This document shows, one piece after another, positions 7,517 through 45,009 of a stretch of 46,509 bases of DNA. Source of the DNA: Vicugna vicugna. Lineage: Eukaryota. Each line of letters begins with the position of its first letter. Positions within the stretch are counted from its first letter, which is position 1. The notes under the pieces are model-generated. The model did not search any database. It was not told the origin of the DNA and saw only the letters and a program-made list of their open reading frames with translations. The position numbers and the translations under genes are program-made. The stretch lies in NCBI GenBank assembly GCA_013265495.1, contig MU058066.1, positions 1 to 46,509 of the forward strand, read 5' to 3'.

Positions 7517-7637
7517 ATGAGAGCATCTTATGCCCCTCGCAAGGAGCCTCCATCCTGCCCCAAGAGTCCCCCTTTTCCTTGGCGCTTCGTGGGGATTCTT
7601 TTGCTAGCCCTAGTGCTACCAATACACATGATCTCTG
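7517..7637 (+). CDS. CD46: CD46-like exon 1, signal peptide MRASYAPRKEPPSCPKSPPFPWRFVGILLLALVLPIHMIS
   Basis: AAAATGA start, long n-region plus hydrophobic core resembling bovine/porcine CD46 leaders, phase-1 donor G|GTAGGA at 7638. Confidence 0.92.
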
Positions 7638-10600
7638 GTAGGAGCCGGGAGAATGACCCACGTAGTAAACGAGCGTGTAGGGGAGGACGGAGGGTGGAGG
7701 GACCATCGCTTGGCGGCTCGGGGCCGAGGTGCCAGGCTGGCGTCCTTAAGAGTTAAGGTGGAAGGCATGGCCAGAGTGTCCCTGAGTCTTCCTGTTGGTA
7801 CCCACGGGGGAGGGGACCACATTGTGATCCAGGAGAAGATTTGCTTGGAGGTGGACGCTGAGTGTTGTGGGCTGGTGATCACCGCAGGAGTTTACCCAGG
7901 GCCAAGCTGGGTCCCTAGCAGAAGCTTGGAGGGTGTTTTCAGGACTGAGCCAGCTCAGGACAGGAACGTGGACCTGGTGATGGTGGGGACTGCTTGCTCC
8001 TGAGTACCCAGTGCTGCAGATGTTGCCAGGCTGGTGCTGTGCCTATGCGGAGGGTTTGCCTGTGGCCCTGGGTGGGGTGACACCTTATGTGTAGGGTGTT
8101 TGTGCCCTAGTCAGCTGAGACTGGGGAGCCTGGGCCGAGTGTACCCCAGTATGTGCTTTGTGGAAGTTGTCAGCCCAGTCGTGCCCAGGGTGGGACAAGG
8201 AAATGAACTATTTGCAGCATGGGGCTTAACAAAACAACAAAAAAAAAAAAAAAAGACAGCCAAACCTAGTGAAAAATGAGATCCTGAAAATGAACTATAA
8301 ATGATGTCCATGTATTTTTCCCATGTAGCTGAGAGACTAAAGCGGAGGTTCATTCACTAAGTTTGTTTTTCCTTTTTCGTGTTTCATAGAATTGAGTAAA
8401 TACTTTAAATATATGCTAAAAAAGACATGCTTAATGTAGAAAACATTCACAAGGAACAAGGAACACCCATTTTAAAAACTTTGGTATATTTCCTCCTGTC
8501 TTTATATGTAGATGTCTTTCCAGGCCCAAGTTATTTTTAGGATCCTATTACATATACAGTTTGTATTCTGCATTTTTTCCTTAGCAGCATTCAGCCCCCA
8601 AATATTTGCTTTCTATATGCCAGGTCCTGAGCTGGTCATGAGGATGCACTGGTGAGCAATAACACACCATTCCTATTTTCATGAGCCTTCGTCCACTATT
8701 TGTCTGTGCACACACACCGAATACATGCAGGGGCTGTGTTTTGCTCTCTGTGAGATCCCCGGTGCCAGGCACACATTAGGAAATCAAATATTTGCTAAAA
8801 TGTATTGGGTGTGGCAGACAGGAGGCAAAACATAATACTAATGAATATGTTATAACCCAAGAGAGGCCTGGAGGAAGGGAGCAGGATTCTCTGACAGCAT
8901 ATAACAAATGCCTGGTGCAAGGGGAGACTTTTCTGCTCATCAGACAGCCCAAACTCTGCCACTTTGGTGCTTCTACACTTGCTGTTCCCGTGGCCTTGGA
9001 ACATTCTCCTCTGCCTCTTGGGTTATTGACTCCTTCTTATTCTTACTTGGTTGTGATGCCCCCTCCTCAGAGGGACCTTCTCTGAGCCACTATTTCCAGT
9101 AGAAATACACACTCTAGCTCAAATCCTCCCTAACTGGTAGTCACCCTCCCAAACTATGTTTTCTGTTCCCTCCTCACTAGACTGCAGGGATCTTAGCTGT
9201 CTTGTCACACTGGTGGTTCCACATGACCATTTTCTTTTGCCGCATTATCAACACTCTTGTATCACTATCAAATACTAGAAAATTAAAGGTAACATTTGGC
9301 TGGGGCTTACAGCCCAGGAGAAACTTCTCCTTCCAGGAGGAAGGTTCTCTAAAGACCCATGCTTAGGATGGCCTTTCTGTGGTGCCTACAAATCTAAGGC
9401 CAGGGCAGCTGAGGTTCAGAAAGGATCAATCTTCCCCTGATTGTAGGCTCCTCAGGGCTCACAATTGTCCAGTCTTGCTTGTTACTGAGTATTTGAAAAC
9501 TTCATTTCTAGGTAGGAGTGGTGCGGGTGATGGAACAGTGGTAGTAAGAAGAAATCACAAGGAATATTTGAAAGAATAATAATGTTTAGAGCAAAAAGCT
9601 TAAAGGTAGAAGTTGAAGGAGATGATGAAAACTATTAAAATGGAGGAAAATGGATGAAGTAAAATGAATAGGATGCATCATGGAAGGTAACAGAACTAGA
9701 AATGAAAAGGAGGAAAACAAGTTTAAGTTTGAGGCTGAAAGGTGAATCAGGAGAGATAGGAGACTTAGATAAAGTACCATCGAGAACCCACTATACCATG
9801 TAGGGAAAGCATTGGATAAAACAAACATTTCGCTGAAGCAGCTCACAATGAGGTTTTGTAAGCAGACAGTGTTGTACCCGGGAGCCCTGCCACCTCAGAG
9901 GTAGTTGCCAAATGGTAGGAGATCACAAAAGGGACCCTTTGTGGAATTTCAGGGTGAGTCTCATTGCTCCATAATGGGTCTGCGTTTGGGGACAAAACCC
10001 GCAGTCTCCGTTTATGTGTGATCTCTTCTGCTTATTTTTGGTGTTTTGATTCTTCCTAATGAAAGAAGCCAAGATCAATAAGTGCTTCCACTGTAGTTTC
10101 TTGGTTTCCTTACTGTACGTATTACAGTACAAGGAGAACAGTGCGTATTGGTCAATTGCTAGGTTACCATAATTAATACTGGCAGACAGGAAACAAAACA
10201 AATTAGGTAGTCAAATCTTCCTCCAGTGCATAAAGCTTTAAGATGATTAATTTCAATATTAGATTCATTATATTCTGTTCTTTACCATTGTTTTCTGTTT
10301 GACAGCAGTGGTACCTGAAAACCAAAGTCTTGTGAATAGCTATGATGCAGAACATACTGGGCTAGGTATCGTGGCCACATGGATGAGCGGAGCCCACTAT
10401 ATTATGTATTAAACACAAAAACACGTGATAGTGAGCTGAGAGAGCCATGCAGAGGAGAGTCCAAGAGAAGGGGCTGGTCACTGCCTCCCCACAGGAAGCA
10501 GAGGGTACTTCCTAGAGGAGATGTTGAGTGGATTATGTCAAGGAAGATGAGAGCTGAGCAGGGGTTGCTCCTGAGCAGGAGGAAGGGTGCTCAGAGCAGA

Positions 10601-10959
10601 GGGAGCAGTGTGAGCAAAGGCTGAGAGATGTGGCAGGGCTCATGGACTGCCTAGCTACCCAGTGTGGCAACAGTAGGCAAAGAAGGCCAGAGGAAGGCCA
10701 AGGAGTAGATCACAGAGTGAATAGTTATGGGAAAACAGGATAGTTAGGAAAGAACAAAGACTATCATAAAATTCAGACTATGATGTCATTCCTTGTTCTT
10801 TTGGGGCAATTTGAGATCTTTCATTTGATTTAGCATGATGCAAATCTAACCTAAGTTTCCTTTAACTTCCCCGGGCTCAATAGAAGCCCGTTTCTTGAGG
10901 AGTAAATTGCAGACAGACTTTGCTGGCATAACCATACAAGGGTTCCAGATGACAGCCAG

Positions 10960-11180
10960 TGATGGAAATTAGTGCTGGTAGTGGAACCAGCCTGCCTGGC
11001 TTGACCCTGGTCTGCTACCTATTGGAAACATATTTTTGGGCAAGCTGCTTCAACTTGCCATGGCTCAGACTGCTCATCTTAAAGAAGTGGAAACAGTACC
11101 CAACTCATAGGAAGATTATGAAGGATAAGTTCGTTTAAAACCACTAAAATAATGATTATCACAGGTAGTCCTTAACTGGA
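10960..11180 (+). mobile_element. MIR SINE relic
   Basis: MIR-core-like TTGGGCAAGCTGCTTCAACTT...CTCAG...CTCATCT..AA...AGTACCCAACTCATAGG. Boundaries approximate. Confidence 0.6.
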
Positions 11181-11289
11181 TATTTTTAAAATGATTAATA
11201 TCACCACTGTTGTTCTAAGAAACAAGTTCTGGAGTTGTCTATTACCAATCTTTAGGAAAAAATTTCATAAACTCTTTCGAGTTCACTGT

Positions 11290-11375
11290 TTTGTTTTTTT
11301 TTTACTTTTTTTTAAATTGAAGTATAGTCAGTTTACAATGTTGTGTCAATTTCTGGTGTACCACACAATGTTTCA

Positions 11376-11426
<51 letters not shown>

Positions 11427-11662
11427 GTTTTCAGGTTCTTTTTCACCATAAAGTGGTGAAAAAGATATAAGCTACAAGATATCTAATATATACCATAAAC
11501 TATTTATCTGTTTTATATATACCAGCAATATCTGCAAATCTTGAACTCCCAGTTTATCCCTTCCAATCCCCTTCCCCTCTGGTAAACATAAGTTTGTTTT
11601 CTATATCTGTGAGTCTGTTACTCTTTTATAAATAAGTTCATTTGTCTTTTATTTTTAGATTT
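11290..11662 (-). mobile_element. 5'-truncated L1 3'UTR insertion with (TA)n (~11379-11423) and a target-site duplication
   Basis: T-rich tail then TTGAAGTATAGTCAGTTTACAATGTTGTGTCAATTTCTGGTGTAC. GAGTTCACT is repeated at ~11279 and ~11663. Confidence 0.85.
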
Positions 11663-12810
11663 GAGTTCACTTTTAACAATGTTAAAATCCTATTTTTAAT
11701 CTTAGAAGTAATGTAGAATGGGTTTAAAATAAGATAAAAAATATTTTGACTTGAAAGAAATTAAAAATTCTGATAAAGGGAAACAGTTGTAAATTAACCA
11801 ATAGAAAAGAAAAAAAATGGAAACAGGCACAAAAACAGAAGTGAAAAAAGTGATGATTTGAAGATATTACTGGAATAGTTTGCTGAACAGTAATGAATTT
11901 GAATTTTGCTCCAAGAGGGTGCAGAACTGATAACACTGCTCCTTCAGCTCTGGCACGAGGCACTGGAAATGCAGTGACAAATGAGACATGGTGCTAAGAA
12001 GGTTACAGCCTCTTGGGAGTATAAGCAATAATCAATTACAGTGTGAAAAGTGCTGTGAAAGAACTAAATTGGGGCATCATGAGGAAACTTCACCCAGTTT
12101 TTTGAGCGACATGTCAAGAGCCTTAAGAAAGATGTGGCATCTGAGAGGAAACTGAAAGATGAGTGGGTGGGAGGAATGGCAGGGTCTGTTGTCAAAGCTG
12201 AAGTGACACGGTGCATGGAGGTCGAGCGTGCTGCAGTAAGTTATTTAGTGGGCACGGCGAGTGGAGTTGAATGGGGCTTAGAGCAGCGTGCTGGAGTGAG
12301 CTGGTGTTAAAGCTCTCCGAGCTGTGGCATGGAGCCTTATAGACTTTCCACGAGGGCAACAGGGAGTCACTGAAAGGATTTGACTTGGAAGAGCCTTGGC
12401 CAATGCACCGTGTCAGTATTACTCGGGTAGCACTGTGAAAGTGACCTAAATGACAGGTAGAAAGACTGGTAAGGAGATCTACTCAGGGACTCTTGTTGCA
12501 ATCCAGAAAAGAAATGAGAGTGGCTTGAATTAAAAGTAGACAGTACACCAGAGACTGACACAATGTATCTGACTATACTTCAATAAAAAACAAAACAACA
12601 AGAAAATAATGAAGTAGAGATAGAAACAGATGGAACAGGTATTTTTCAGTTGTGGAAACCGTGTTCTTGTGTGCCGGGTGTAAGAGTCAAAAGAGACCAC
12701 ACTGAGGCTTCATTGTGTTATTTGAGAGAGCGTAATACATTCCAAGTGCAGCCATGCTGGGGAGGCAACTGAATACATAGATGAGGCATCCCAGCTAGAG
12801 ATGTGGGATG

Positions 12811-13264
12811 GAGAGGGGGACTTGGGAGGCAGCTCGCTTCAGTGGTAATGACGTCATGAGAGTATATATTCTCACCTGGGGACTTTGCAGAACGAAATCA
12901 GCAGCATTCCTTGAACAACCTACGAGGGACATCACATTATCCAATCAGGCAGAGAAGGGAGAGCAGCCAGAGGACAGGATGAAAACCAGGTGGTGGTTTG
13001 CTACCTGGAAACCAAGGAGAGAGAGCTTTTAAAGCAGAAGAGGAGGACTTGGGAGGCAGCTCGCTTCAGTGGTAATGACGTCATGAGAGTATATATTCTC
13101 ACCTGGGGACTTTGCAGAACGAAATCAGCAGCATTCCTTGAACAACCTACGAGGGACATCACATTATCCAATCAGGCAGAGAAGGGAGAGCAGCCAGAGG
13201 ACAGGATGAAAACCAGGTGGTGGTTTGCTACCTGGAAACCAAGGAGAGAGAGCTTTTAAAGCAG
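12811..13264. repeat. 227-bp direct tandem duplication (12811-13037 / 13038-13264) in intron 1
   Basis: GGACTTGGGAGGCAGCTCGC at 12818 and 13045. Identical translated segments in ORFs 12808..13032 and 12990..13259. Confidence 0.98.
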
Positions 13265-15620
13265 GGAGGGGAGTGGAGAAAGAATGACCATTAGCTCCCC
13301 ATGTTATAAACAGGGCACCTAAAATTACTGAGGGATAGCATGTCAGAGTGAGTTTACCAAGAACAAGCTTACTTAATTACTTTGAAAGTAAGTTAAGTGA
13401 TTATAAATGAGAGGGAACTGAGAAACAAAATTTATAGGTTCAATATTAAAGCCTGTGCTTTGAAGAAGCAAAGAAAGTTTTAAAATAGGTTGTGTAGACA
13501 GTGAGAGAAGGGGCAGGATAGTCAGGTTTCACTGAGTTTCCAGTCTTGGTCAGAGACCATGATTCTTGAAGTTGCCGCCTGGGCAGGGGTGTGGGTTTGT
13601 GCTTGTGTCATAGGTTTACTTTTAATTTTTGCAAGCAGGCAGAGAGTGCTTGCATAGTTTTTGAAAGTATATAGAGAATAAACAATTCTCTTGGTTCACA
13701 GCAGAGCACTATTTCACAAGCCTGAAACTCACCTGGAACATTGGGGAATTTTCTGAATGCAGCCTATCCCATGTAATGGCATCTAGAGTTAAAGAAGAGC
13801 ATTGCAGCCTAATAATAATTGTATTGTAAACTATCCAGAAAAACCTCAGTCAAGATGTTCTTTTTCTGGAGCTGAGAATCTTTAATTTGAAAATCCTCAT
13901 AAGAAGAAAATTCAATGTTCTGAGCAGAAGATGAATTTGATTATAAAAATGTGTGATATGAGAGTCAATCATTACAGTGTATGAAGTGTGCAGTCTACTG
14001 ATTGCCCAAGCAGATTCTAGGCTGCACATGGATGAAAGTATGTCTCTCATGATGCATTTTAGTGAAGAGAAATACTTCAAGCTAGTCGAAGGGACTAAAC
14101 TCTCCAACTGACATTTCTTTTTCCATATAGACAGAGCACTACATGTGAGAGTCATATTAGGAATTCTCTCTCCTGTGACTTCAAGATACTCACTGAAATC
14201 AAATGCATAAACAAAGAACACTTGTATAATTTAATTATAAGCATGCTGTTAGCTTGAGCTCTTTCTGGGTTATTCCGGGAAATGCTAGAATGACGTAATA
14301 CATTTGTTTCTAGTATGGAATTAGATAGCATTTCTATCCCATGTTTTTTACCCATATTAACATGAGAATGTCTGGCTCGGGGTATTCAGTAAATTTACTG
14401 CTATTAATAAAATTCAGCTCTATACTAATCTTGTTTTTAAACAATGCTTTTAATAACTACAGCTTTTTGGGTTTTGCTTTTATTTTGGGAATTTTATTGA
14501 GGAACGTTCATGTATCAAGATCAGCATAGTGGGAATGTTGAAAGCTAAATGTTGAAACAATTTCAGGCCATGATGTAAATGAAATGTTGGGTAGCATGTC
14601 AAGAGAGGAGTTTAGAATTGAGAATATGGTGTGAAAAGTGGGTAACATTTCACTTGTTTAGAGTTCTCTCTTGAGCAGTCTCTCAATCTGAAGTAAGACC
14701 AGGATCCAGGGATCAAGAAAAAAAAGATTCCTCAGGGCTCAGAGTAGGTCTATCTCCCTTCTTCTTGGGTCCTTAGCCTTAAAGGAGGGGCCTCTGCTTT
14801 CCTTTAACCCTTTAAGACTTGATGTGCCTCCATCACATTATTTTACATAAGTTTTCTAACAGATTTGTTAGGTTGTCAAGCCCACAGATAATTGAAAGGA
14901 AGAGGAATTGCTGAAGTAGGAATGACACTCTTCTAGGGAGGAACTTCTCCTCCCCCCAAAAAATACCCCAGAATAAAACATTCTAAAAGCATAGCAATAT
15001 AGTAGCTTTCCTCTCAGGATCTATTAGGTAAACAGCCCAACTGCTACTTCAGGGAAATGCATGATCTAATGATCAGTGAAGGAAAATTGAATTATATTTA
15101 CAGCAATGCCAAGAAAGCAATTTTTAAATGTAAGTCTATTCAAAGTAGTAAGTTTTTATATTTAAATGGCATCTATTCATCCATAAAACTCTTTAATTCA
15201 TGAATATGAAGTATATGAAAGTCATATATTGAAATACTTAGTCCACACCTATTTTGATCAATGAAACCCACAATGCTTAGTTAATAATCAACTCTTACCA
15301 TAGCATTTCTTGAGAACCCACTGCATACAGAGATTTCAAGATAGTAATAGTGACAGGTGATCATATGCTTGTGTTTCAAACGATGGAAGGATAATCTGAG
15401 CAGAGTGCTATGTACTTAGGAGACTTCTCAGAGGAGAGGGGAGGTTTCAAATGAATTTAGAAAAAAGTGGGGAAGGATTCATATATATATTCGTTATTCA
15501 TATATATATATAAAATAACAAATACATTGGTGTTTGTCTCTTTCCATTTACTGTTGAGTGTAAATTTAGCTTACTCTTCAACAAATCAGAAAGTAATAAA
15601 ATGTTATTTAAAGTAAGCAA

Positions 15621-15951
15621 GGATTGGGCTGTTTGTTTTTTTATGTGTTGTATGAGATGTTTATATATTCTGAAAATTAAGCTCTTGTCAGTCTCACCTT
15701 TTGCAAATATTTTCTCTGATTCCATAGGTTTTTGTTTTACTTATGCTTTCCTTTGCTGTGCAAAAGCTTATAAGCTTAATTAGGTCCCATTTGTTTACAT
15801 TTGCTTTTTTTTCTATTGCCTGGGTAGACTGCCCTAGGAGAACTTTACTGAGATTTATGTCAGATAATGTTTTTCCTATGTTTTGTTCGAAGAGGTTTAT
15901 AGTGTCTTGTCTTATATGTAAGTCTTTAAGCCATTTTGAGTTTATTTTTGT
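15621..15951 (-). mobile_element. Internal L1 ORF2 fragment lacking 3'UTR and polyA
   Basis: Highly similar to ~25330-25665 of the younger L1 in this window (TTTGCTGTGCAAAAGCTTATAAG...AGTCTTTAAGCCATTTTGAGTTTATTTTTG). Confidence 0.9.
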
Positions 15952-16230
15952 AATTTGTTGTTTTCTGCTTTCTCTAGAGATTTTTACACATTTTAAGGTC
16001 TGTTTTCTGCTACAACAATGATGATTTTCTTATGCAAAACTAGATTTTAGATATCAATACATTTATTTTTCAAGCTGTGAGAAAGCTCCAGGGAATCTTT
16101 TCTTGATGATTGGTTGCTGTTTTAAGTTTGGCCTCATAATAGTTAAAGTAATATTTCATCATTAGAATTTTGATCTTGATTTAAATGTTTGAAACTGGTA
16201 TTAAAAATGAATTTGAAATTTTTCTTTTAG

Positions 16231-16330
16231 AATCATCATGTTTAAGGCCAGAAATAAAAAATGGTGATGTATTCCCCCGGGGTGTATCATTTTCGTTGGG
16301 AACAGAGATTCACATTTATTGTAAAAAGGG
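16231..16330 (+). CDS. CD46: CD46-like exon, first half of CCP2: (E)SSCLRPEIKNGDVFPRGVSFSLGTEIHIYCKKG
   Basis: TTTCTTTTAG acceptor, GG|GTAAGT phase-2 donor, 100 nt, C..P.I.NG...F..G.....C..G sushi motif. Confidence 0.93.
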
Positions 16331-16689
16331 GTAAGTAAATTGCTCCTTAGATGAAATAAGTTAAATGTTATGATTTCTTTGCTTCTCAGCTAAAAGCTGA
16401 TTTCATTTTACTTTCTAGGAGACAAGATATTCTTGTAGCCAGACAGCTCTGGGGCTTTTTAAGGAGACTGAAAAGATGTGTAATTAATAGAAATTTAAAT
16501 TGAAGAAAAGTGAAATTGTATACTTACTATATGTAGTATTAAGCCTATTGAAAGCATCAAAACTGTAGTAATCATGGTGACTTTATCCTTAACCACAAAG
16601 TGCATCCTATTTAAAATGGCCAACTCTCAAAGCTGAAGGAGGACTCACCAAATGTTGCATTGTAGAAGTTCTCTATTTCCTTACTTATC

Positions 16690-20342: not shown

Positions 20343-20428
20343 TTATTACTTAAAAGGAATAGAAGCTCTAACTTGTATTGCTGTTGGAGATAATATACAG
20401 TGGAATTACAAGTACCCAATATGTGAAA
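20343..20428 (+). CDS. CD46: CD46-like exon, second half of CCP2: (G)YYLKGIEALTCIAVGDNIQWNYKYPICE
   Basis: Polypyrimidine-TAG acceptor, A|GTAAGT donor, 86 nt as in CD46 exon 4, GYYL.G....C.......W....P.CE motif. Confidence 0.95.
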
Positions 20429-21499: not shown

Positions 21500-21697
21500 A
21501 GATTTCATGTGGACTGCCTTCAAACATAAAAAATGGAAAATATACCAATAGCTCCAAGAATGTATTTCACTATAAAGAATAAGTGACTTATAGTTGTAAT
21601 CTGTTAAATAGACCAGATCAATATTCACTTGTTGGAGAGAGCGAGCTTACTTGTTCTGCACATGGCAATTGGAGCAGTGAAGCTTCTAAGTGTAAAT
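21500..21697 (+). pseudogene. CD46: CD46-like CCP3 exon with in-frame stop: KISCGLPSNIKNGKYTNSSKNVFHYKE*VTYSCNLLNRPDQYSLVGESELTCSAHGNWSSEASKCK
   Basis: 198 nt, phase 1-1, all four Cys and the Trp present. TAA at 21580-21582. The donor is a weak T|GTAATA. Confidence 0.95.
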
Positions 21698-22214: not shown

Positions 22215-25200
22215 GAGAAAACAACCACTGAATAACAGGAAAATACTCTTTCTAAGTATATATGGAACATTCTCTAAGGTAGACGGTAAGGTTATTTTTA
22301 ACAAATTCCAGAGGGTTGAAATCATTCTGAGTGCATTATCTGATCACAATCGAATGAATGTAGAATTAAAACAGAGATAATCTAGAAAATTCCCAAATAT
22401 TTTAAAATTATGCAAGACACTTCTAACTAACCCATGAGTCAAAGATGAAGTAACGAGGACATTAGAAAGTGCTTTGAGCTAAATAAAAATGAAAACACAA
22501 CATATCAAAATATTAAAATTTATGTGATACAACAAAAGCATTGCTTAAAGGGAAATTTATATCATAAAATACTTATGTTAGAAAAAATAAAAGTCTCAAA
22601 TCAATATTCTAAGCTTCCACCTTAAGAAACTAAAAAAAAATTAAAAATAAAAAAGCAAACAAACACAAAACAAGAAGAAATAAAATGATTATAAAGATAG
22701 ATAGAAATCAATGAAATTGTAAAGAGAAAGTAACAGAGAAAACCAATGAAAACAACCCTAGTTCTTGGAGCACATCAATGTAATAGATAAAGCTACAGCT
22801 GGGCTGACAAAAAAGGAAAAGACATTTAATAAATCAGAGAAAGACAAAAATCTGTGTGTTATCACTTATACGTGGAATCTAAAAAGTACAACAAACTAGT
22901 AAATATAACAAAAAAGAAGCAGACTCACAGATATAGTGGTTACCAATGGAATAGGGGTGAAGGGGAAAGACAGGGGTGGGGAAGTTGGAGGTACAAACTG
23001 TTGTGTGTAAGACAGGCTACAAGGATGTGTTGTACAACATGGGAGTATAGCAAATATTTTGCAATAACTGTAAATGGAGTGTAACCTTTAAAAATGTATA
23101 AAAATTAAAAATGAATGAGTTTTTCCAAAAAAGAATGAAAAAGAGAACAACACTAAATATTCTTCAGAATTTAAGGGGATAATAAGGGAATAGTACACAA
23201 ACAACCTTATGTCTATAAATTTGACAACTTACGTGAAATTGACAAATTCCTTGAAAGATAAAAAGTACCAAAATAACTTCACACAAAGATACAGGTAACC
23301 TGAATAGTCCTATATCTATTAAGGACATATAGTGTGTTGTTAAAAACCTTCCCACAGTGACAACTGAGGCCCTGATGGATTCCTTGGGGAATTGTACCAA
23401 ACATCGCAGAAATAAGTAATAGCACCTCTACACAAACTCTTCAAGAAATGTAAGATTTCATGAGAACATTACCCTGATACCTAACTCAGACAAAAACATT
23501 GACAGAAAATTATAAACAATATCCTTAATGAATATAGAACTTCTTAACAAAATATCAACGAACCAAATCCTGCCATATATAAAGATAAAAATGCATCATA
23601 AACAAATAAATTTATTCCATAAATGCAAGATTGGTCAAATTAAAAAAATTAATCAGTATTATTTACCATATCAAGAGAGTATAAAGAAAAAATTAATATG
23701 ATCATCTCAATAAAGGCAAAAAAAAGAGCAACTGGCAGAATTCATCATCTTTTCATTATAAAACTTATTGGCAAACTAGAAATAGAAGGAAACTAGCTGT
23801 CTCAACCTGATGAAAGGAATATCAGAAATCTCACAACCAACATTATACTTAAAGGTAAAAGACTAATTTCTTTCCCCTTCAAGGTAAGAAGAAGTGTATC
23901 TATACTCACCACTCTGTTCAATATTGTACTGGAGGTCCCACCCACTCTGGTAAGACAAGAGAAAGAAAAAGGCATACGTATGTTGGAAAGAAAGATAAAA
24001 TAGTTTCTATTCATTTATGACATGATTGTCTACAAAGAAAATTCTGCATACTGAAGTTTTAGCAAAGTTGCAAAATATAAGATCAGCATACAGAAATCAA
24101 TTTAATGCCTATATACTAGTAACAATTCATTACAAATTGAAAATCTTTAAAGTACTATTTATAACCCCAAAGCATGAAATAGCTGCATCTAAATCTAACA
24201 TGTGAAAGATTTAAATAGTAAGAAAGTATTAAACACTAATAAAAGAAATTAAACAAGATCTTAATAAATAAAAAGATATTCATTGGCCATGAAAAGGAGA
24301 TTCAAAATAATAAAAATGTAAATTCTTTGTAATTAATCTATAAATTCAACACAATCCCAATAACAATCCGAGTAGAGCTTTTTTTATTGACGTATAGTCA
24401 GTTAAAATTGTCAATTCTCATGTACATTATAATGTTTCAGTCATACATATATATACATGTATTTGCTTTCATATTCCTTTTCCTTATAGTTGACTACAAG
24501 ATATTGAATATGGTTCCCTTTGCTATACAGAAGAAATTTGGGTTTTTTAATTCTGTTTATATGTAGTAGTTAGTATTTGCAAATCTCAAACCCCCAGTTC
24601 ATCCCTTCCCACCATCTTTCCCCCCCAGGTAATCATAAGTTTGTTTATTATGCCTGTGAGTCTCTTTCTCTTTGGTAGACAAGTTCGTTAGTGTCTTCTT
24701 TCTTTCTTTTTTTCTTTTTTTTNNNNNNNNNNNNNNNNNNNNNNNNNNNNNNNNNNNNNNNNNNNNNNNNNNNNNNNNNNNNNNNNNNNNNNNNNNNGAT
24801 CTCCAGACCATGTTACTACAAATGACATTGTTTTATTCTTTTTCATTGCTGAGTAGTATTTCATTGTATAAATACACCACAGCTTCTTTATCTAGTTATC
24901 TGTCAATGGACATTTTTGTTTCCATGTCTTCACTATTGTATATAGTGCTGCTGTGAACATTGGGATGCATGTACACTTTTTTAATTTGAGTTCCCTCCTG
25001 ATACATACCCAGGAGTGGGATTTCTGGGTCATATGATAAGTCTATTTTCAGTCTTTTGAGGACTCTCCATACTATTTTTCTTAATGGCTGCATTACACTA
25101 CATTTCCCCCAACAGTGTAGGAGGGTTCCCTTTTCTCTACAACCTCTCCAGCATTTATTGTTTGTGGACTTTTTAATGATGGCCATTCTGACCAGTGTGA

Positions 25201-28226: not shown

Positions 28227-28409
28227 TGGTCAAATGTAAACCTCCAGTACTTGAACATGGAAAAGCAATATCAGAAATTAGAGAAGTTTTTACCTACAAA
28301 GACGTGGTGATACTTGAATGCCTCCAGGGTTTTTACCTTAATGGCAGCCATGCAGTCTTCTGTGGTGGTGAAAATACTTGGGAACCTGAGATGCCGAAGT
28401 GTATTAAAG
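28227..28409 (+). CDS. CD46: CD46-like CCP4 exon: VKCKPPVLEHGKAISEIREVFTYKDVVILECLQGFYLNGSHAVFCGGENTWEPEMPKCIK
   Basis: TTTTCAG acceptor, G|GTACAA donor, 183 nt, intact sushi domain (within ORF 28118..28459). Confidence 0.97.
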
Positions 28410-29190: not shown

Positions 29191-30632
29191 CTTAACAGCA
29201 TCCCCTTTACAGAGTATCTTGCAGGTCCAGGACTATGGTTCATTTTCCAGACTGCAATCAGTTGGCTTCATTTTACAAACTGGGAAATTTCTGTTGTCAC
29301 CTGATTAAAACCAGTATTTCTACCACACACACCATTCTGCACCGCATAGAGTTATTATTTTTCTCTCTCCTGGGCATTCTTATTTGGCAACAGAGGGTAA
29401 ATCTCATAGCCACTGAATGGCAGGAAAAGTCTTTATTTATTGAAATGAACTGGGTGATTTCTGGACGGGACTATTGATCAGCTGCTCTGCTTAAGTCTTG
29501 AGAGACTATTTGAATGTGATGGAAGGAATTATCTTCCTGATTTTAGGGATTGCACCTCTGGCTTCTCTTTACAGCAGCAGCAGAAGCACGAGACAAGAGC
29601 AAGAATGGGTAGAGCACGAGCCTGGGCAGAGGGTACTCAGGGTGCTGGGGGGGCTCTGCTCACTCAAGTAACATCACTGCTGTGAGTGTACTTCCCTGTT
29701 TAATGAAGGTGTGGAACTCACAGCTCCATGACTGGCTTTTGATGTGTTTGTCTTTTTCCTGTTGTCCTAATATTTTCAAGGATTGAGGGGAATTATTCAT
29801 ATTAACATGGTAATTAGAGCTCCTTTTTAGAACAGCTGTAAAGCTGGTACCCCGTATCGCCCTAGAGTACCGGGGTGAGGTGAGGGCTGTGAAGATTTGG
29901 GGGGAAAGAGATGATTTTTATTGGACCATATATAAAGAAGTTATACTCATTGACCCATCCCTGTTAGTCACAGGGTCCTAGTGAGAATATGCACTACAAT
30001 ATACTATGTTTGTTGATATGCTGTTTTGAAAAAGTGGACCATAAACACTTCTTAAGGACTTAGAAAACATTGATACAATTTAGTGTTTGAAGAAGAGAGA
30101 AATTGTTTGTGAGAAAAAAACTTATGAAAAGAAGAAAATACAGGGATTTAAAAAAAATCAAAATCAACTCTCCTTATGAGATTGCTAATCATTTTTTTAT
30201 CATCAGTTTGAGACAGACTATACCAAAAGCATCAGTAGCACCATAAATGATGTTAGGTCAGGTTTAAATGTGCTAATACGAAAAAATGTCTAAGAAATAC
30301 TATGCCAAAAGACAAACACAGAAAAAGATACAAATTATGGAATGTAATAGTGCCTGACCCTTTTAAAGAATACTGAGTTTTATGATTTATAGTTGACTAC
30401 AGGGATTTCCATTATAAAATACAAAGTTGTGTTGTACATTTTATGCATACATCCTCACCTACATGTGCAAATATACACTTAGACTAAATTCCCAGGAGTA
30501 GACTTGCAAAGTTCTGAGTGTATTGTATTTTTTATTTGAGAAATAATTAACCTTTTTCTAAAATTAAAAAAAAATAGATACATAATTTTGTGTTGATAAG
30601 ACTGATGCATTGAGCCAAATTTAATTTTGCAG

Positions 30633-30680
30633 GTTACAAGCCTACCTATCCAAAGAAGCCTCCAGTTTCAAACTATCCAG
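30633..30680 (+). CDS. CD46: CD46-like STP-C exon: GYKPTYPKKPPVSNYP
   Basis: TTTTGCAG acceptor, G|GTTCAG donor, 48 nt. KPPVSNYP matches CD46 STP-C. Confidence 0.95.
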
Positions 30681-31229
30681 GTTCAGTAACTCTTTATCCT
30701 TCGTATATTGTTAAGAACTTTATAAGGTGATGAGTACAAAATCATGTCTTGCTTAATTTGCATTTCTTTAATTATCAGTGAGATTGAACTTTTTCTTATC
30801 TACATTTATTTATTATATTCTTTCTTACTTTTTCTATTAGGTTTCTTAAATATTTTTCTTGTTGATTTGAACTTATAAATTAAAGCCCTTTTAAGATGAA
30901 GTGAACTTTTTTCCTACGTTTATATTTTAGCCTTATTTTCACTAGTCGGTTTTTTTTTATGATTTTTATACTGTACTATTAGATGTAGGTTGCTTTTTAT
31001 AAATTTTTGTTATATGAGTGGTACACAAATATAATTTTGTAAATTTTCAAACATTGCAGAAGTATGCAGAGTGAAATTAGATCCCCTGATCTTTCTCTAG
31101 CCTATTACCTGAGTTAATCACTGTTAATAGTTTAGAGTGTCTCTATGTATTTCTGTAGATCAAAATCCTTATATGTGTAATTATACATTTAGTTTGGTGG
31201 TTTTTTCCTCTCTTTTTCTTATACAGAAA

Positions 31230-31510
31230 TGTTTTTAAGTGCCAGCACCATTTTCATTCCAACCAGTAATACACAAAGTTTCCAATTTCTCAACTTCTTT
31301 GCTAACATATATTGATTTCTGGGTTTTGATAATAATGATTATAATTTATGTTAGTTAATTGACTTGAAGCAATATCTCATTGTGGCTTTTATTTGCATTT
31401 CCCTAAGTTAGTGATGTTGAGCATCGTTTCATGTGAAGATATACAAATTGCCAAGAAGCCATTTCTCTTTGGAGAAATGTTTATTCAATCCCTTGCCTGT
31501 TTGTGAAATG

Positions 31511-31544
<34 letters not shown>

Positions 31545-32590
31545 ATTGAGTTTTAGAAGTTTGTTACATATTTTGGATATTAATCCCTTATAAGGTAGTT
31601 GTAAAACTTCACTGTTTTGCATGTGGATATCCAGTTTTCCAAAAATTGTTTGTTGAAAAGACTGCCCTTCCCACTGAGTGTTCTTTGTACCCTTGTGAGC
31701 GATCATTTGTCCATATAAGTGAGGGTTTATTTATGGATTCTAATTTAGAGCATTGGTCCGTGTGTATGTCTTTCTGCTAGTAGCATTCTGCTTGATTATT
31801 GTAGCTTTTTAGTAAGTTTTGAAATCAGGAAATGTAAGTCCTCTCAACTCTGCTCTTCTTTTTCAAGATTTTCTTGGCTATTGCTAGCCCCTTGAGATTC
31901 CATATGAAGTAAATTGGATTTTTCTATGTAAAATGTATTTTCAAGATGGTGATAAGAAGTATAATCAATCTGTAAATTACTTTGTGTCATATTAACATCT
32001 TAACAATATTAAATCTTCCAATCTATGAACACAGGATGTCTTTCCATTTATGTCTTCTTCCCTTTTTTTCAATGTTTTTATAATTTTTGTGGACAAGTTT
32101 TTCAACCTTCTTGGTTCAATGTATTTCTGAGAATTTTTTGATGCTATGAAATGAAATTGTTTGCTTAATTCCCCGTTTGGATTGTTCATTATTAGTGTAT
32201 AGAAAGATAACTTATTTTTGTGTGTTGATTTTGTATCCGTTAACTTTGCTGAATTTATATATTAGTTCTAATAGTTGTGTGGGAGTGTTTCTGTGCATGT
32301 GTGTGTGATCTTTTTAGAGATTTTTATGTAAAAGATCATGTCATCTATAAACAGACATTATTTTATTACTTCTTTCCCATTTGGATATTTTTTATTTTTA
32401 TTTCTTAGCAAATTATTCTGACCCAAACTTCCAATATTATGTTGAATAGAAGTGGAGTGGCAGAATTATGCAGCCTGTCTTATTCCTGACATTAAGTGAA
32501 AAAAATTTTAATATTTCAACATTGAGTTTGACATTAGCCATGAGTTTTTCTATCCATGGCCTGTGTGTTGAGGAGTCTTTCTATTCCAGA
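31230..32590 (-). mobile_element. Degenerate L1 ORF2 fragments including (GTT)n at ~31513-31546
   Basis: GCATGTGGATATCCAGTTTTCC, TTTGAAATCAGGAA, CTTCCAATCTATGAACACAGGATG. Confidence 0.8.
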
Positions 32591-32908
32591 GTAATCTCTA
32601 AATCATTTTTAAGTACTCCTCTTTTAATTTTAAGTAGAATCACATTGAATTCCAGGCTAATTTTGAATATACACTGATGATTAGTTTGTTTGCCGTACCA
32701 CAGAATTAGTGACAAGGAACATCAGTGGACAGGAGGAAGAATGGCATTGAATATAAATTTATAATGTTTGACGATGCAGCTTTTAATGAGAGCCATTAAT
32801 ATAATGTATAAGGAATATTAAATTATAATTATAAATTATAATTGTGAATGTGTAGATCTTCAAGACTTATTTAGTCTTTTTTTTTAACCTAGTTCCATTT
32901 TTTTCTAG

Positions 32909-32959
32909 GATATCCCAATCCCAAAGAATTACTGTCACTTGAAGACTTTGAGGAATTAG
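32909..32959 (+). CDS. CD46: CD46-like juxtamembrane (U) exon: GYPNPKELLSLEDFEEL
   Basis: TTTTCTAG acceptor, G|GTATTA donor, 51 nt, GYP.P.E start typical of CD46. Confidence 0.92.
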   Translation, partial: DIPIPKNYCHLKTLRN

Positions 32960-33470
32960 GTATTATTTTAATTATTAACAACCCCACATTATGAGACCTT
33001 AGAGTTAGTTCTACATGGAAATATCATGTTCTAATCATTTGTAGGTAGGGAAGAAACAATGTGTCACAATTAGTAATAATTGACATTTATAGTTATTTTA
33101 GTAGTGCAGACACCATGACAAATGTAAGTGGCAATTTGCATAGATGCACATAGGCCATTTTCTTTAATCTAGTGAATTCTAACTGTCTTAGTAACCTGTA
33201 CTAACTACCCTGACATGGTGGCTAGAGCACAAAACAGTGAAAAATGAGGTTCCTGTTAAGAGTTTCACAGGGTGGATCCTAACCCTGAAAACTGTTTACA
33301 AGGGTTCTGTGATCAAAATGACTTGGTTGCACTAGCAGTCATGCCAAAATTATATTGCCAAACCTTTTTTTTGCTGTAGTGTTTAGATGATCTGATCAAA
33401 ATCAAAGCATAGTTGCTCTTTAGGACCCATACATGCTCAATGTCTTCAACACTGTTCATTTTTTTCTCAG

Positions 33471-33506
33471 ATGTAGGAAGCTTTGCTGTGTATATCCTAA
33501 CAGTAA
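33471..33506 (+). CDS. CD46: CD46-like TM1 exon: DVGSFAVYILTV
   Basis: TTTTTCTCAG acceptor, 36 nt, A|GTAAGT donor at 33507. A second GTAAGT starts at 33503. Confidence 0.9.
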
Positions 33507-34001
33507 GTAAGTATCCCAAATTTTTATATCATTTAAATCATAATGTAGTATAAAGAAATGCATTATTTTCTCAATGATTTTTCATTTGCTATAGTTTTAA
33601 TAGCTTGAAATTAAGTAAAAACAGTCTAGAAAAACCCGACCTTTTATGATACAGCACCACCGTGCTGGTGACGGTACATGCTTTTTTATTCTGTATATCC
33701 ACTTGGTAATAAGCAGTAAAAAATAAATTTTTTTTCAAGATGAGTAGTCATGCGAGTCTGTTTCTTGAATATGCTTTTGATTATTTCCTAAATTAAACAA
33801 GGAGTTGGACCTACTCTGAACTGTTTTAGTGACTTCCAGGGAACTGGATTTAGATACTGAAGGGTCAAGATGGAATATCAATGTTTAAATAAAATAACAT
33901 TTTCTGACCATGGAAATGTAGCTAACATTTATTTCTGCTGCTAGGTTTGGAATCTTGGTAATTAGTTAGTGACATGTCACTTGTTTCCTGTTTTCTTTCA
34001 G

Positions 34002-34239
34002 TTGTTGCCATTTTACTAGTTTTGGTCTGCATGTACAGAAGTCTTCGAGGAAGGAAGCAGCAGGAGAAGGAGAAGAAAGAAGAGGAGGAAAAAGAGAAGA
34101 AAGAGAAGGAAGAGAAGGAGAAGAAAGAGAAGGAGGAGAAGGAAAAGAAAGAGAAGGAGGAGAAGGAAAAGAAAGAGAAGGAGGAGAAGGAGAAGAAAGA
34201 GAAGGAGGAGAAGGAGAAGAAAGAGAAAGAGCAGAAACG
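34002..34239 (+). CDS. CD46: CD46-like TM2/anchor exon expanded by an E/K repeat: IVAILLVLVCMYRSLRGRKQQ-EKEKKEEE-(EKEKKEKE)6-QKR
   Basis: TTTCTTTCAG acceptor, CG|GTAAAC phase-2 donor, 238 nt, open frame (ORF 33974..34243). Confidence 0.92.
34064..34231 (+). repeat. Coding 24-nt x7 all-purine minisatellite (GAGAAGGAGAAGAAAGAGAAGGAG consensus)
   Basis: Seven 8-codon units with mostly synonymous GAA/GAG and AAA/AAG variation. Confidence 0.95.
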
Positions 34240-34999
34240 GTAAACTACAGTGCATTTTCTCTTAGTCTAACCTTTTTACTCTTGACATACTTTTGCGCAG
34301 TTATTATTTGTAGTCCATGTTGCATGCTGTGTGGGTTTTTTTTTATGTTCCTGCATGAGGGTGCTGTCTGAATTGCATTTCATTACTGAAAATATTTTTA
34401 GCTACTTTTCATGTCATTGAACAGGATAAATTTATGCAGAGTTTCTTCAACTATTACAACTGCAAGAAACATTTCAGTGGCATTTGATGTTTAAGTTCTG
34501 CAGTAAACCATGGACTATTATGAGGCCTTCACTACTCTAAGTGTACCCTACTTCCTAGATTGGGCTAGTAGCCAAGATTAAAGTTTAAGTGGTTCATGGT
34601 AGAAACTTTAACATTTGTATTCACTTGCATTTTATGATGAAAATCTCCATTTGTCTGCACAGCTTAGGTAGTAAGTAAGAAGCTATGTAGCCACAATTCG
34701 GTTTCATTTCATTTAGAGTTGTTATCTATATAAGTTAAGCTGTGGAATTAAAAGCAGCATTATTTGATTTCCCTTTTATGTTCTCTTAATTTACTAAGCG
34801 GCAGTAAAACTGATGGGGCTAAAGTTACTGAAAGGGTAATATTTACAAGACATCTCTTTAATTATATCCTTCTCTTTATCTGTAAAAATGAAAAAAAGTC
34901 AGGGGGCTAAGAATAGAAAAAAAGAAGAAAAATTCATATCTACTAAGGAAAACCGAGATGTTAAACATAAAACTTAAATTTTAATGAAATAATTTACAA

Positions 35000-35664
35000 T
35001 TTAATGAAAGACTTAAATCAAAGGCAATAAACATAATGAACATAGACACAAAAGTCCCCCAAAAATGTCATTAATTAAGGAAATTGAGAAAGATACAAAT
35101 AAATAGAAAGATATTTCAGGTTCATGGATTGGAAGAATTCACATTGTTAAAATGCCCATACTACGCAAAGTAATCTACAGATTCAACGCAACCCCCATCA
35201 AAATTCCAATGGCATTTTTCACAGAAACAGAACAAGCAATTTTAAAAAATCTGTATAGAAGCACAAAAGACCCTAAATAGCCAAAGCACCCTTAAACTGT
35301 AAACATCATGCTCGCTGGTGTCAAACTATATTATAATGCTCAAGTAATCAGAACCATATGATATTGACATAAAAGCACACACATAGATCAATGGAACAGA
35401 ATACGGAGCCCAGAAATAAACCTACATGTATAAAGTCAGTTAATTTATGACAAAGGAGGCAAGAATATATGAAGAAAGAACAGTCTCTTCAACAAATGGT
35501 GTTTGGAACTGGACAGCTACATGCAAAAGAATGAAAATGGACCACCATCTTACACTATATACAAAATTGACTCAAAATCTGTTGAAGACTTGAGAGTAAG
35601 ACCTGAAATCATAAAACTCCTAGAAGAAAACATAAGCAGAAACTCATTGATATCCATCTTGGCA

Positions 35665-35721
<57 letters not shown>

Positions 35722-36710
35722 TTTGGATTTGGCACCAAAAGCAAAGGCAAGAAAATCAAAAAGAAACAAGTAGCACTACGTCAAACTAAAAAAGCTTCCT
35801 CATAGCGAAGTAAACCATCAACAAAATAAAAGGGCAATCTACTGAATGGAAGAAAATAATGGCAAACTATGTATTTGATAAAAGGTGAATATTCCAAAAT
35901 ATGTGACCACTCATACAACTCAATGGTAGAATATCAAACAATTTAATTAACAATGGGCAGAGGATTTAAATGGACATTTTCCGGAGAAGACATACAGATA
36001 TCTAACAGGTACATGAAAAGATGTTCAACATTACTAATCATCAGGGAAGTGTGATTCAAAACCTCAATATGATATCACCCCGCAGTATTAAGTTTCCTCA
36101 AAATACCAAAACTAGAACAATCATGCAATCCAGCAGTTCCACTTCTGGGTATTTATCCAAAGGAAATGAAAACACTAACTTGAAAAGATATCTTCACTCC
36201 CATTTTCATTGCATCATTATTTATAATAGCCTAGGTATGGAGACAACGCAAGTGTCCATAGTGTGGAGAGAAGGGGACCCTCCCACACAGCTGGTGGGAA
36301 TGTAGTTTGGTGCAGCCATTATGGAAGAGTATGGAAATTCCCCCAAAAACTAAAAATAGACTTACCATATGATCTTACAATCCCACTTCTGGGAATATAT
36401 ATCTGGAGGGAACTCTAATTTGAAATGATACATGCAACCCAATATTCATAGTAGCAGTATATACAATAGTCTAGACATGGAAGCAACCTAAATGTCCATC
36501 GACAGAGGATTGGATAAAGAAGTTGTGTATATTTATACAATGGAATACTACTCAACCATAAAAAAGAATAAGAACTTTGAATATAAACTCTTAGCAACTA
36601 TCAAACATGAAATACAGTATTAATAACTATACTCACTCTTCTGTACATTACATCCTCATGACTCATTTTATAATTTGAAGTTTGTAGCTTTTGAATCCTT
36701 TCACTCCACA
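35000..36710 (+). mobile_element. Composite L1 ORF2 3' fragments with (ATT)n at ~35665-35720 and a short antisense L1 3' piece at ~36575-36710
   Basis: TCATGGATTGGAAGAATT, ATCTACAGATTCAACGCAACCCCCATCAAAATTCCAATGGCATTTTTCACAGAA, TGGAATACTACTCAACCATAAAAAAGAAT. Confidence 0.85.
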
Positions 36711-38144
36711 TGGGCAATTTCTTTTTAAAAGCAAAGTGATGTCTTTGATCACAGTGGCAAAGGGGAAGACAAAATATACCAACTACAATGACAGTCTGGG
36801 CCTATCCAGCCCTGTGTGCCTGCGAGGATAAAGCCAACTAGGAAAGTAATTTTCAGACAGACATGAACTTCAAAGTATATGTAAACATTTGAAGATAACT
36901 TAATGCTGAAAGTAATAACATAACTGTAATTAGTCATTCACACACACATTTTAATCATCTTGAAATAGCATTTTTGTTATATCAAATGAATGTTTCATTC
37001 AGTTTATAGTAATGCTTATTTATCTTTGTCAAATACTGGATTTCAATTTAAAATTCTACCTAAAAAAAAGGATTTTACTGCAACAGAAGAAAAAATGCAT
37101 TGACTTCAAAAAACAGAAGAATATAGTGGTTTTGGAGGATGAAGGAGGAGTCGCCCACCACCGTAGTCCTTAGGAAATGGCTCTATTACAAGTACGGTGC
37201 TGTGACAGCGGTGGTTCAGTGATGCCTTGCCCACCAGGAGAAATAGTAGAATCTCCAAAATTAACACAGTTAGCTGTTATGTGGGGTTGGTATCTCGAAG
37301 TGTTTGCTGGGGTGGGCACACTCTGAGTAACTGACTGGTCCACATTTGGTTGTGGTCTGTCTACCATGTTTCCTGAGGAGGGACTGGGACTGCGTTTTCC
37401 AGCTCCAGACTCTGTAGCCCTGAGTGGCTGCTGTGACGTCAAATGTGGCTTATCCTATGTAAGATGAGCAAAGTACACACCAGATTCAAAGACTTAGTGC
37501 ACTGCAATAAGTGAAATATATTAAAACTAATCCTGCTTCTTTTCCTTCTTTTAATGTGGTTTCTAGAAAATTCAAAATTACCTATGTGACATACTATATT
37601 TCTTTGAATAACATTGACTTGAATAATAGGTATAAGAAAGATGTCTGCTGCTACAACAAAAGTGTGATGTGGATTTTACTTATTTAGGAGTCTCTGTTAC
37701 CACAACATATCATTTCCTTGACAGTGAGGGGTAAATAAGGCATTATTAAACTTGAACACTCCTGGAATTATTGTCTATTTAAAGGTTTTATCTCAGAGCC
37801 AGATTTAAAACTCCATTATTAGGGAAAATGCATGTTTCTCTTTAATCTTTCCCACTGACCCCAAACTAAAATAACAGAATATTTACTAAGTATGTGTGAC
37901 TGCTCTCTTTTTCATTTTGGGGGACATCAAAAATATAATACAGGGATAGAAAAAGGGTTTCTGGAGTGAGACTCGTTGAACATTTGAAATTACTTGAAAA
38001 GAATCATTTCTTTTCTAGTGATGTGACTCTTACTACTATAAATACAGTTTTAATTGTCCATTTTCTAAGTAAGCTTCTGGAATTTAATTTCTGTGCTTCT
38101 GTTTACCTCTGATGCTATCTTTTTTGTTTTGTCTTGTCTTACAG

Positions 38145-38217
38145 GAAAAGAGAAGTTACTGCTAGACCCACTGCTCACCAGAAAAGGCCAACCAGCCCAT
38201 CAGTACGGAAGCACTAA
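38145..38217 (+). CDS. CD46: CD46-like last coding exon (CYT2-type tail): (R)KREVTARPTAHQKRPTSPSVRKH*
   Basis: Strong acceptor (TTTTGTCTTGTCTTACAG), phase 2 matching the TM2 donor, 23 further codons to TAA, the length of CD46 CYT2. Confidence 0.88.
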
Positions 38218-43314: not shown

Positions 43315-44591
43315 ATATAACTTTTCTTGTACTCATGCAAAACTCTTAAATTGCCCCAAAATATGGACACACTAGTCTGCTGGGTACCCCCACAAAACTG
43401 AACACCAGCTTCTCAAAACGCAGGGCTGGGCCAACATCTTACATGAAGACATTTCATGTTCAAGATTTAGCACATTGTTTCCCCTAAGTTGGTGAAAGAT
43501 TCCTGGACTCACATTTACTAGGACTCACCAGCACTTAGTTCCAGGGATGGGAATTCTTTGCTGGCACAACATGCATGAGGCTGGCTGTGCCTTCAGTCCA
43601 ACTCCCTCTCCACTTACATGCTTACAGTAAATAAGCGGCAAAACTTACGTAAGTAGGACCCACGCCTGACAAAGCATCTTCTACCTGGGTGGGGAGAACG
43701 GCCTCGAAAGCCAGGCTCAAGATGTCTCCGGGAGAAACATTCTGCTTAACAAGTTACTAGGGAAAACCAGCTGGAATGGGCATTTTAGGTAAAGAACTGT
43801 CAGCCTCCAGATGAACAAAGAAAAATAGTTTTGTGGGAGTGGCACCTCAGTTACCTGGGGAGTGCATTTTGCTTCTCATGACCTACCCATGTGTACTGTG
43901 TAAAGTTAAGCATTCATGGGAGCACCAGAAACTACTTTTATGGAAAAGGGGCCCCATATAACTTTTCTTGTACTCATGCAAAACTCTTAAATTGCCCCAA
44001 AATATGGACACACTAGTCTGCTGGGTACCCCCACAAAACCAAATACCAGCTTCTCAAAACGCAGGGCTAGGCCAACATCTTACATGAAGACATTTCATGT
44101 TCAAGATTTAGCACATTGTTTCCCCTAAGTTGGTGGAAGATTCCTGGACTCACATTTACTAGGACTCACCAGCACTTAGTTCCAGGGATGGGAATTCTTT
44201 GCTGGCACAACATGCATGAGGCTGGCTGTGCCTTCAGTCCAACTCCCTCTCCACTTACATGCTTACAGTAAATAAGCGGCAAAACTTACGTAAGTAGGAC
44301 CCACGCCTGACAAAGCATCTTCTACCTGGGTGGGGAGAACGGCCTCGAAAGCCAGGCTCAAGATGTCTCCGGGAGAAACATTCTGCTTAACAAGTTACTA
44401 GGGAAAACCAGCTGGAATGGGCATTTTAGGTAAAGAACTGTCAGCCTCCAGATGAACAAAGAAAAATAGTTTTGTGGGAGTGGTTACCTGGGGAGTGCAT
44501 TTTGCTCCTCATGACCTACCCATGTGTACCCATGTATAAAATTAAGCATTCATGGGAGCACCAGAAACTACTTTTATGGAAAAGGGGCCCC
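43315..44591. repeat. ~640-bp direct tandem duplication (43315-43955 / 43956-44591)
   Basis: ATATAACTTTTCTTGTACTCATGCAAAACTC at 43315 and 43956. Both units end GGAAAAGGGGCCCC. Several substitutions and an 8-nt indel. Confidence 0.98.
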
Positions 44592-45009
44592 AAGTCATTG
44601 TTTTTGTGTGTTGACACCAAACTCCATCTTCTAGCACTTTCTCATTTGGGGGCTGGCGTCAGAACAACCTGCTGGCAGAATCCGTGCCTTACTCACTTTA
44701 TTGGAAATTCCTAGGCTGGAGCCTGGGACACGTAGATGCATCAAAAGTTGTTCAGTTTGTTACATCTGACCCAAAGTGGTTATGCCAACAGGTCTACATT
44801 TACCTTAGTGGAGAAGTGATAAAACAATTCAGGGTCCTAACTATTCCCGCCGCCACATCCTGGGGACATGTGACTCTTCACACAACAGCCTGAAATAGCG
44901 CTGCGGCTGCAGGGTTGAGGGGGGTCCCATTCACTGGGGAGCTAAACCAGCAGTGCTTTACCCATCCCACCCTCACTGCACCGGGCAGGGCAGGCATCTG
45001 GGAAGACTG

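Follow-up and report, generated by a model that had tools for sequence, protein, structure and literature searches.

Among the known systems that resemble the gene considered here is bovine CD46 (PDB 8CI3/8CJV; PMC10385506), which is built from a signal peptide, CCP modules with a split CCP2, an STP segment, a transmembrane segment and a tail. BVDV E2 is reported to bind CCP1 of this protein (PMC8741246), and section 3.4 of a second study names EQIV and GQVLAL as the bovine peptides that are bound (PMC10385506). A CD46 without its first module is described for New World monkeys, where, according to one review, SCR1 is lost by alternative splicing of the only CD46 and the full form is found on sperm (PMC5035964). 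The same review places the binding of C3b/C4b on SCR3-4, states that the SCR1-less form does not serve laboratory measles strains, and calls the significance of the SCR1 loss unclear. A third system of relevance is the group of non-classical, endonuclease-independent L1 insertions, as described by Sen et al., in which a missing tail and a missing target-site duplication are often accompanied by a deletion of the target (Sen et al., 2007, PMC1920257). For the camelid CD46-like or MCP-like paralogues themselves, no paper was found in the open-access literature.

The window, which is the whole stretch of 46,509 nucleotides analysed from Vicugna vicugna, represents one 45-kb unit of a tandem array, and its positions 1-1500 and 45010-46509 are 96-97% identical. 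The assembled sequence is interrupted by four N gaps (2313, 2889, 24723, 45175). It contains a CD46-like gene of the "membrane cofactor protein-like" (MCP-like) paralogue family, whose annotated members range from dog to whale. The CCP4 exon, used as a query, matched "membrane cofactor protein(-like)" proteins of camelids, whales, ruminants, pig, horse and bat, and both CCP3 and CCP4 group with the MCP-like proteins of these laurasiatherians. The exon order and phases are those of a CD46/MCP-type RCA gene, with a signal exon, a split CCP2, CCP3, CCP4, STP, transmembrane (TM) and tail exons (Table 1), and the cytoplasmic tail carries a Glu/Lys repeat at 34002-34240. The gene does not possess four intact CCP modules, as CCP1 is absent and a TAA lies inside CCP3. 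The retained CCP exons have their AG/GT sites and no disabling changes.

Table 1. Positions of the exons and other features of the window.
Feature	Position	Strand	Remarks
Exon 1 CDS (signal peptide)	7517..7637	+	Phase 1; donor GT at 7638
Fused intron 1/intron 2, CCP1 exon absent, no N	7638..16230	+	
Near-perfect 227-nt tandem duplication	12812..13264	.	TRF 2.0 copies, 99% matches; possible gap-filling artefact
Donor-like GTAAGCAA just before the L1	15613..15620	+	May be an orphaned CCP1 donor or chance
Internal L1 fragment, 331 nt, without 3' end, poly(A) or target-site duplication	15621..15951	-	blastn of outer parts against other window L1 copies
CCP2a exon, gene-B type	16231..16330	+	AG acceptor; 32/32 aa gene B, 12/29 gene A
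CCP2b exon, gene-B type	20343..20428	+	29/29 aa gene B, 14/28 gene A
CCP3 exon, broken	21500..21697	+	In-frame TAA 21580-21582; weak donor GTAATA
CCP4 exon, gene-A type	28227..28409	+	60/60 aa gene A, 50/60 gene B
STP exon	30633..30680	+	Gene-A type
STP, juxtamembrane, transmembrane, Glu/Lys-tail and last exons	30633..38214	+	Gene-A type, alpaca not Camelus version

While the plan of the window gene is shared with bovine CD46, the two are separate genes, and cattle possess their own member of the window's family, XP_024832369 (P0054). This protein is identical to camelid gene A (described below) at 151/250 amino acids over CCP1-4. Its CCP1 scores 51.5 bits against bovine CD46 SCR1-2 (8CI3) and 55.4 bits against human CD46. 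The cattle MCP-like CCP1 is therefore not nearer to bovine CD46 than to the human protein, which indicates that this gene is distinct from the receptor. The CCP1 of camelid gene B scores 24.9 bits against 8CI3, and bovine CD46 is not among the seven matches at E<=1e-9 for the CCP1 of gene A. In addition, neither EQIV nor GQVLAL occurs in any of 72 MCP-like family proteins, camelid A and B included. By comparison with bovine and human CD46 and the cattle MCP-like protein, the window gene is thus not the canonical CD46 orthologous to the BVDV receptor, and the description of its missing exon as virus-binding in the initial annotation is not supported. The lack of these peptides does not exclude that the MCP-like family may bind another pathogen.

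The CCP1 exon is absent from the interval between exon 1 and CCP2a, in intact or decayed form, as had been proposed, and exon 1 in phase 1 can indeed be joined in frame to CCP2a. The interval is free of gaps, and the confirmation covers the assembled sequence. In tblastn searches with 73 proteins, no CCP1 match was found among the matches listed for 12 of the 73 queries. A CCP1 HMM built from 20 distinct CCP1 stretches, one of which (P0072) was poorly cut, gave nothing above -1.0 bits in the interval, and its top score in the window, 11.0 bits, was for the gene's own CCP4. In a frameshift-tolerant scan with eight CCP1 queries, the best score was 43 (ending at 14149), a value that 26 of 150 shuffles also reached, whereas an intact exon would score about 360. 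Its positive controls, the broken CCP3 and CCP2a (the latter from a pig query), were recovered with scores of 250 and 67, respectively. When metagenomes were searched for contigs of host origin that contain an orthologous CCP1 exon, 3 of 160 candidate stretches passed, all of them chance-like matches of 13-14 residues.

Two candidate relics of CCP1 were considered and rejected. The stretch FPYRQSTTCE at 14111-14149 is similar to CCP1 and beat 40 of 40 shuffles, but only for two of the eight single queries, and after correction for the best of eight it was matched by 26/150 shuffles. Moreover, the upstream frame contains many stops and there is no donor at the expected exon end. The second candidate, a Cys codon located 11 nt upstream of the donor-like GT instead of the expected 7 nt, was likewise rejected by its score.

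The exons that remain are a mosaic of two genes. Alpaca possesses two annotated genes of the MCP-like family, both on one 38.8-Mb sequence. Gene A (XP_072804560-62; P0024) encodes CCP1-4, while gene B (XP_072804563-70; P0014, P0035) has no CCP3 and encodes CCP1 and CCP2, followed by a series of STP-like repeats and CCP4. Exon 1 of the window is identical at 41/41 amino acids to gene A (P0024) and gene B (P0014) alike. CCP2a and CCP2b are protein-identical to gene B and about 45% identical to gene A. From CCP4 onward the affinity changes, and CCP4, STP (15/15), the first TM exon (11/11) and the last exon (23/23) are protein-identical to alpaca gene A. The Glu/Lys tail repeat is shared with gene A, including its Camelus representatives XP_010961587 and XP_074208190, and the start of the second TM exon matches alpaca gene A at 19/19 positions versus 14/19 for Camelus, which places the source among the South American camelids. 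The window gene nevertheless differs from both. Gene A has an intact CCP1-3, whereas the CCP3 of the window is about 69% identical to it and contains a stop. Gene B likewise has no usable CCP3, but it retains CCP1, has a CCP4, TM segment and tail of its own, and possesses STP-like repeat exons that were not found in the window.

The crossover between the two halves would lie between 21698 and 28226. Unequal crossing-over between genes B and A could have produced such a gene, with a gene-B-type 5' half and a gene-A-type 3' half. Halves that are protein-identical to two different alpaca genes are also what a misjoin would give. In that case, duplicates that are nearly identical would have been collapsed in a gapped assembly, with loss of the part of gene B that contains CCP1, and the 3' half of A would have been attached to the 5' half of B. 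CCP1 is present in all seven gene-B models fetched, recognized by their B-type CCP2, and in 15 of the 16 camelid models (in one of them partly), the remaining one being without its whole N-terminal half. A B-type CCP2 paired with an A-type CCP4 occurs in 0/16 of these camelid models. Searches with the B-type CCP2 returned just two alpaca gene-B clusters (2/4 candidates) of 265-846 amino acids and nothing under 265. These counts favor an assembly chimera, although a third, non-coding copy would be missing from protein collections in any case. Moreover, a 75-nt N gap (24723-24797) falls within the interval where the sequence switches from B to A. However, the L1 on both sides of this gap is the 3' end of one colinear copy, and the size of the gap is plausible.

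Several other features of genes A and B are of interest for the history of the family. The two genes share an identical exon 1 though their CCP1 and CCP2 are about 42-45% identical, which points to recent homogenisation of their 5' ends. In the gene B proteins P0014, P0015, P0030, P0031 and P0033-P0035, CCP3 is replaced by many STP-like repeats of 10-16 residues (PPASANPAG...), which form a mucin-like stalk between CCP2 and CCP4, and the B-type CCP2 was found in alpaca entries alone. Within the intron between CCP4 and STP of the window, positions 29814-29876 are 86% identical in amino acids to a cryptic N-terminal exon of P0032, just before the STP-like repeat. This match suggests that the repeats of gene B arose by duplication of intron-plus-STP-exon units. 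In addition, the gene A isoform P0026 (XP_072804562) keeps the first nine residues of CCP1 and is then spliced to CCP2. Therefore, CCP1-poor forms of the MCP-like family can also arise by splicing.

The CCP3 exon of the window is identical to gene A at 45/65 amino acids, and in a CCP3 tree of 14 rows it groups with camelid gene A (support 97/93) on an end branch of 0.37 versus 0.022. If the copy is transcribed and this exon is used, the protein would stop at codon 130; if it is skipped, the frame stays open through STP. The decay of CCP3 may have been inherited from the B lineage. By itself it is no proof that the window copy is dead because the gene B models are also without CCP3. The stop and the weak donor of the window exon may in turn explain the absence of CCP3 from the alpaca gene B models. 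Both the CCP3 stop and the two-gene mosaic had escaped the initial annotation, and together they raise the likelihood of a dead copy or a misassembly.

These observations bear on the proposal that the loss of CCP1 was adaptive, removing a virus-docking domain in convergence with New World monkey CD46. The frame between exon 1 and CCP2a is intact, and a protein in which exon 1 leads directly into CCP2 and the first domain is missing would resemble the SCR1-less form of the monkeys. The binding of BVDV E2 to bovine CCP1 and the failure of the monkey form to serve laboratory measles strains are further points in favor of an escape from viruses. However, the window gene belongs to a paralogue family whose distance from bovine CD46 is no smaller than that from human CD46, and all 72 of its proteins lack both BVDV peptides. 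The monkeys lose SCR1 by splicing of their sole CD46, whereas the window copy is an extra paralogue whose DNA lacks the exon, and its sister genes keep CCP1. Loss from the extra copy would therefore remove no docking site. Furthermore, a CCP1-less CD46 of the monkey type would be expected to be expressed and to retain the function of CCP2-4, while in the window CCP3, part of the C3b/C4b site (PMC5035964), is broken by an in-frame stop. Host function was therefore not spared. An adaptive loss of this kind is very improbable. What stands of the original proposal is that the assembled unit lacks CCP1, with a genomic deletion as the most probable single explanation, whereas the proposed escape from pathogens fails on its context.

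The initial annotation had described a tailless L1 piece 280-610 nt before CCP2a, a GTAAGC directly before it and no CCP pattern before this GTAAGC, and each of these observations holds; the piece lies in antisense orientation, and similarity to the C-terminal part of CCP1 was not found upstream. All three other L1 copies that match at the left end begin at 15621/15622, and both copies that match at the right end (n=2) end at 15951. Of the 3' end missing from the piece, roughly a further 900 nt are present in the L1 copy at about 4.9-6.3 kb. No target-site duplication was found around the piece, the longest word shared by its flanks being 5 nt. With 11 occurrences of the motif GTAAG in 8591 nt, the probability of one falling within 10 nt of a fixed point is about 0.013, a value calculated post hoc. 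The position of GTAAGC 8 nt before the L1 is thus mildly unusual. If it were the orphaned donor of CCP1, 8 + 279 nt of intron 2 would remain, a length near that of intron 2 of human CD46, which is a few hundred bases long.

An L1 fragment without a tail or target-site duplication, near an apparent deletion, has the appearance of the non-classical insertions described by Sen et al. (2007, PMC1920257). A later deletion that ran into an ordinary L1 of intron 2 would look identical. The suggestion that the L1 served as filler during the deletion is not supported by the relative divergence of the L1 and the neighboring exons. Compared with local L1 copies, the identity of the piece is 77-83% at the left end, 84-93% in those middle bins that were tested and 90-100% over the last 51 nt, yet CCP2 shows no amino-acid change relative to gene B. 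A copy that had been dead from the arrival of the L1 onward would be expected to show several changes in CCP2, and the L1 is therefore probably older than the loss of CCP1. This order is weakly suggested, as the L1 distance is inflated by differences between subfamilies and decay can be masked by gene conversion. The deletion of CCP1 may have its end immediately upstream of the donor-like site (15613) or within an older L1 of intron 2, in which case it would have removed the 3' end of that L1.

The left junction bears on whether the unit is a real copy or a product of the assembly. At this junction, sequence that occurs nowhere else in the window, a TA tract excepted, meets L1-internal sequence. 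This is not the usual shape for a repeat collapse and supports a real copy. The CCP1-less interval is also without N, and no pair of repeats in it would account for a collapse at this junction, both of which argue against an assembly chimera. In favor of a chimera, the unit includes the 227-nt tandem duplication (Table 1) and a local duplication of about 640 nt (97%) at 43315-44600, a possible assembly artefact, and both are of a kind that gap-filling can make. Among sequencing runs, 17 of the 24 listed, from five organisms and seven studies, contained 0.65-0.77 of 106 words sampled from 15250-16350, and no run exceeded 0.77, which favors a chimera. One of these runs may derive from the source sample. 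The shares expected are 0.66 from the flanks alone and 0.28 from the L1. The best runs exceed the flank-only share, an excess that carries little weight since L1 words can come from other copies. The shares therefore indicate that both flanks exist widely rather than that they adjoin each other. Three RNA or possibly-RNA runs had 0.11-0.21 of the words, which has no value as evidence, and four more rows had 0.00.

Taken together, an assembly chimera is a serious possibility, though its probability falls somewhat below an even chance. The cluster is plainly prone to duplication, as the starts of units 45 kb apart are 96-97% identical and genes A and B have the same exon 1. In addition, a further 3' half of gene B (P0032) lies on a separate 126-kb alpaca contig, that of XP_072814307. 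The best explanation, for which the chances appear about even, is that the window unit is a recent rearranged extra copy, formed via unequal recombination between genes B and A together with a deletion of CCP1. Such a copy would likely be a neutral by-product of recombination between duplicates.

If the rearranged copy is real, its gene could still encode a protein. With CCP3 skipped, as in all gene-B models, the predicted product would consist of signal peptide, CCP2, CCP4, STP, TM segment and Glu/Lys tail, and complement cofactor activity is predicted to be absent from it. That such a two-domain protein is expressed and selected for a role other than complement cofactor activity is improbable. 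The frame that stays open through STP and the retained CCP exons with intact AG/GT sites and no disabling change are consistent with expression, and the absence of CCP3 from 7/7 gene B models indicates that the family tolerates the loss of a domain. However, no protein of this form was found in the protein collections searched, and a recent origin would explain the identity to genes A and B equally well. A broader and more speculative proposal, which deserves comparably little confidence, is that South American camelids possess a domain-shuffling CD46-like cluster. It would comprise gene A with four CCPs, gene B with mucin-like repeats in place of CCP3, and a real B/A hybrid. The product of this hybrid would be a membrane protein reduced to CCP2 and CCP4, with a long Glu/Lys tail, that has departed from complement regulation for another role, for example on sperm or as a pathogen decoy.

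In conclusion, the CCP1-less copy does not demonstrate escape from a virus. The practical warning is that models of CD46-like genes in camelid draft genomes can be chimeric, and the label "CD46" in these drafts need not denote the pestivirus receptor. If the window unit is real, it represents another rearranged copy in a duplication-prone cluster of complement regulators. Its importance would grow if the hybrid were expressed and common, and a natural two-domain form, if true, would help to map the function of the MCP-like family.
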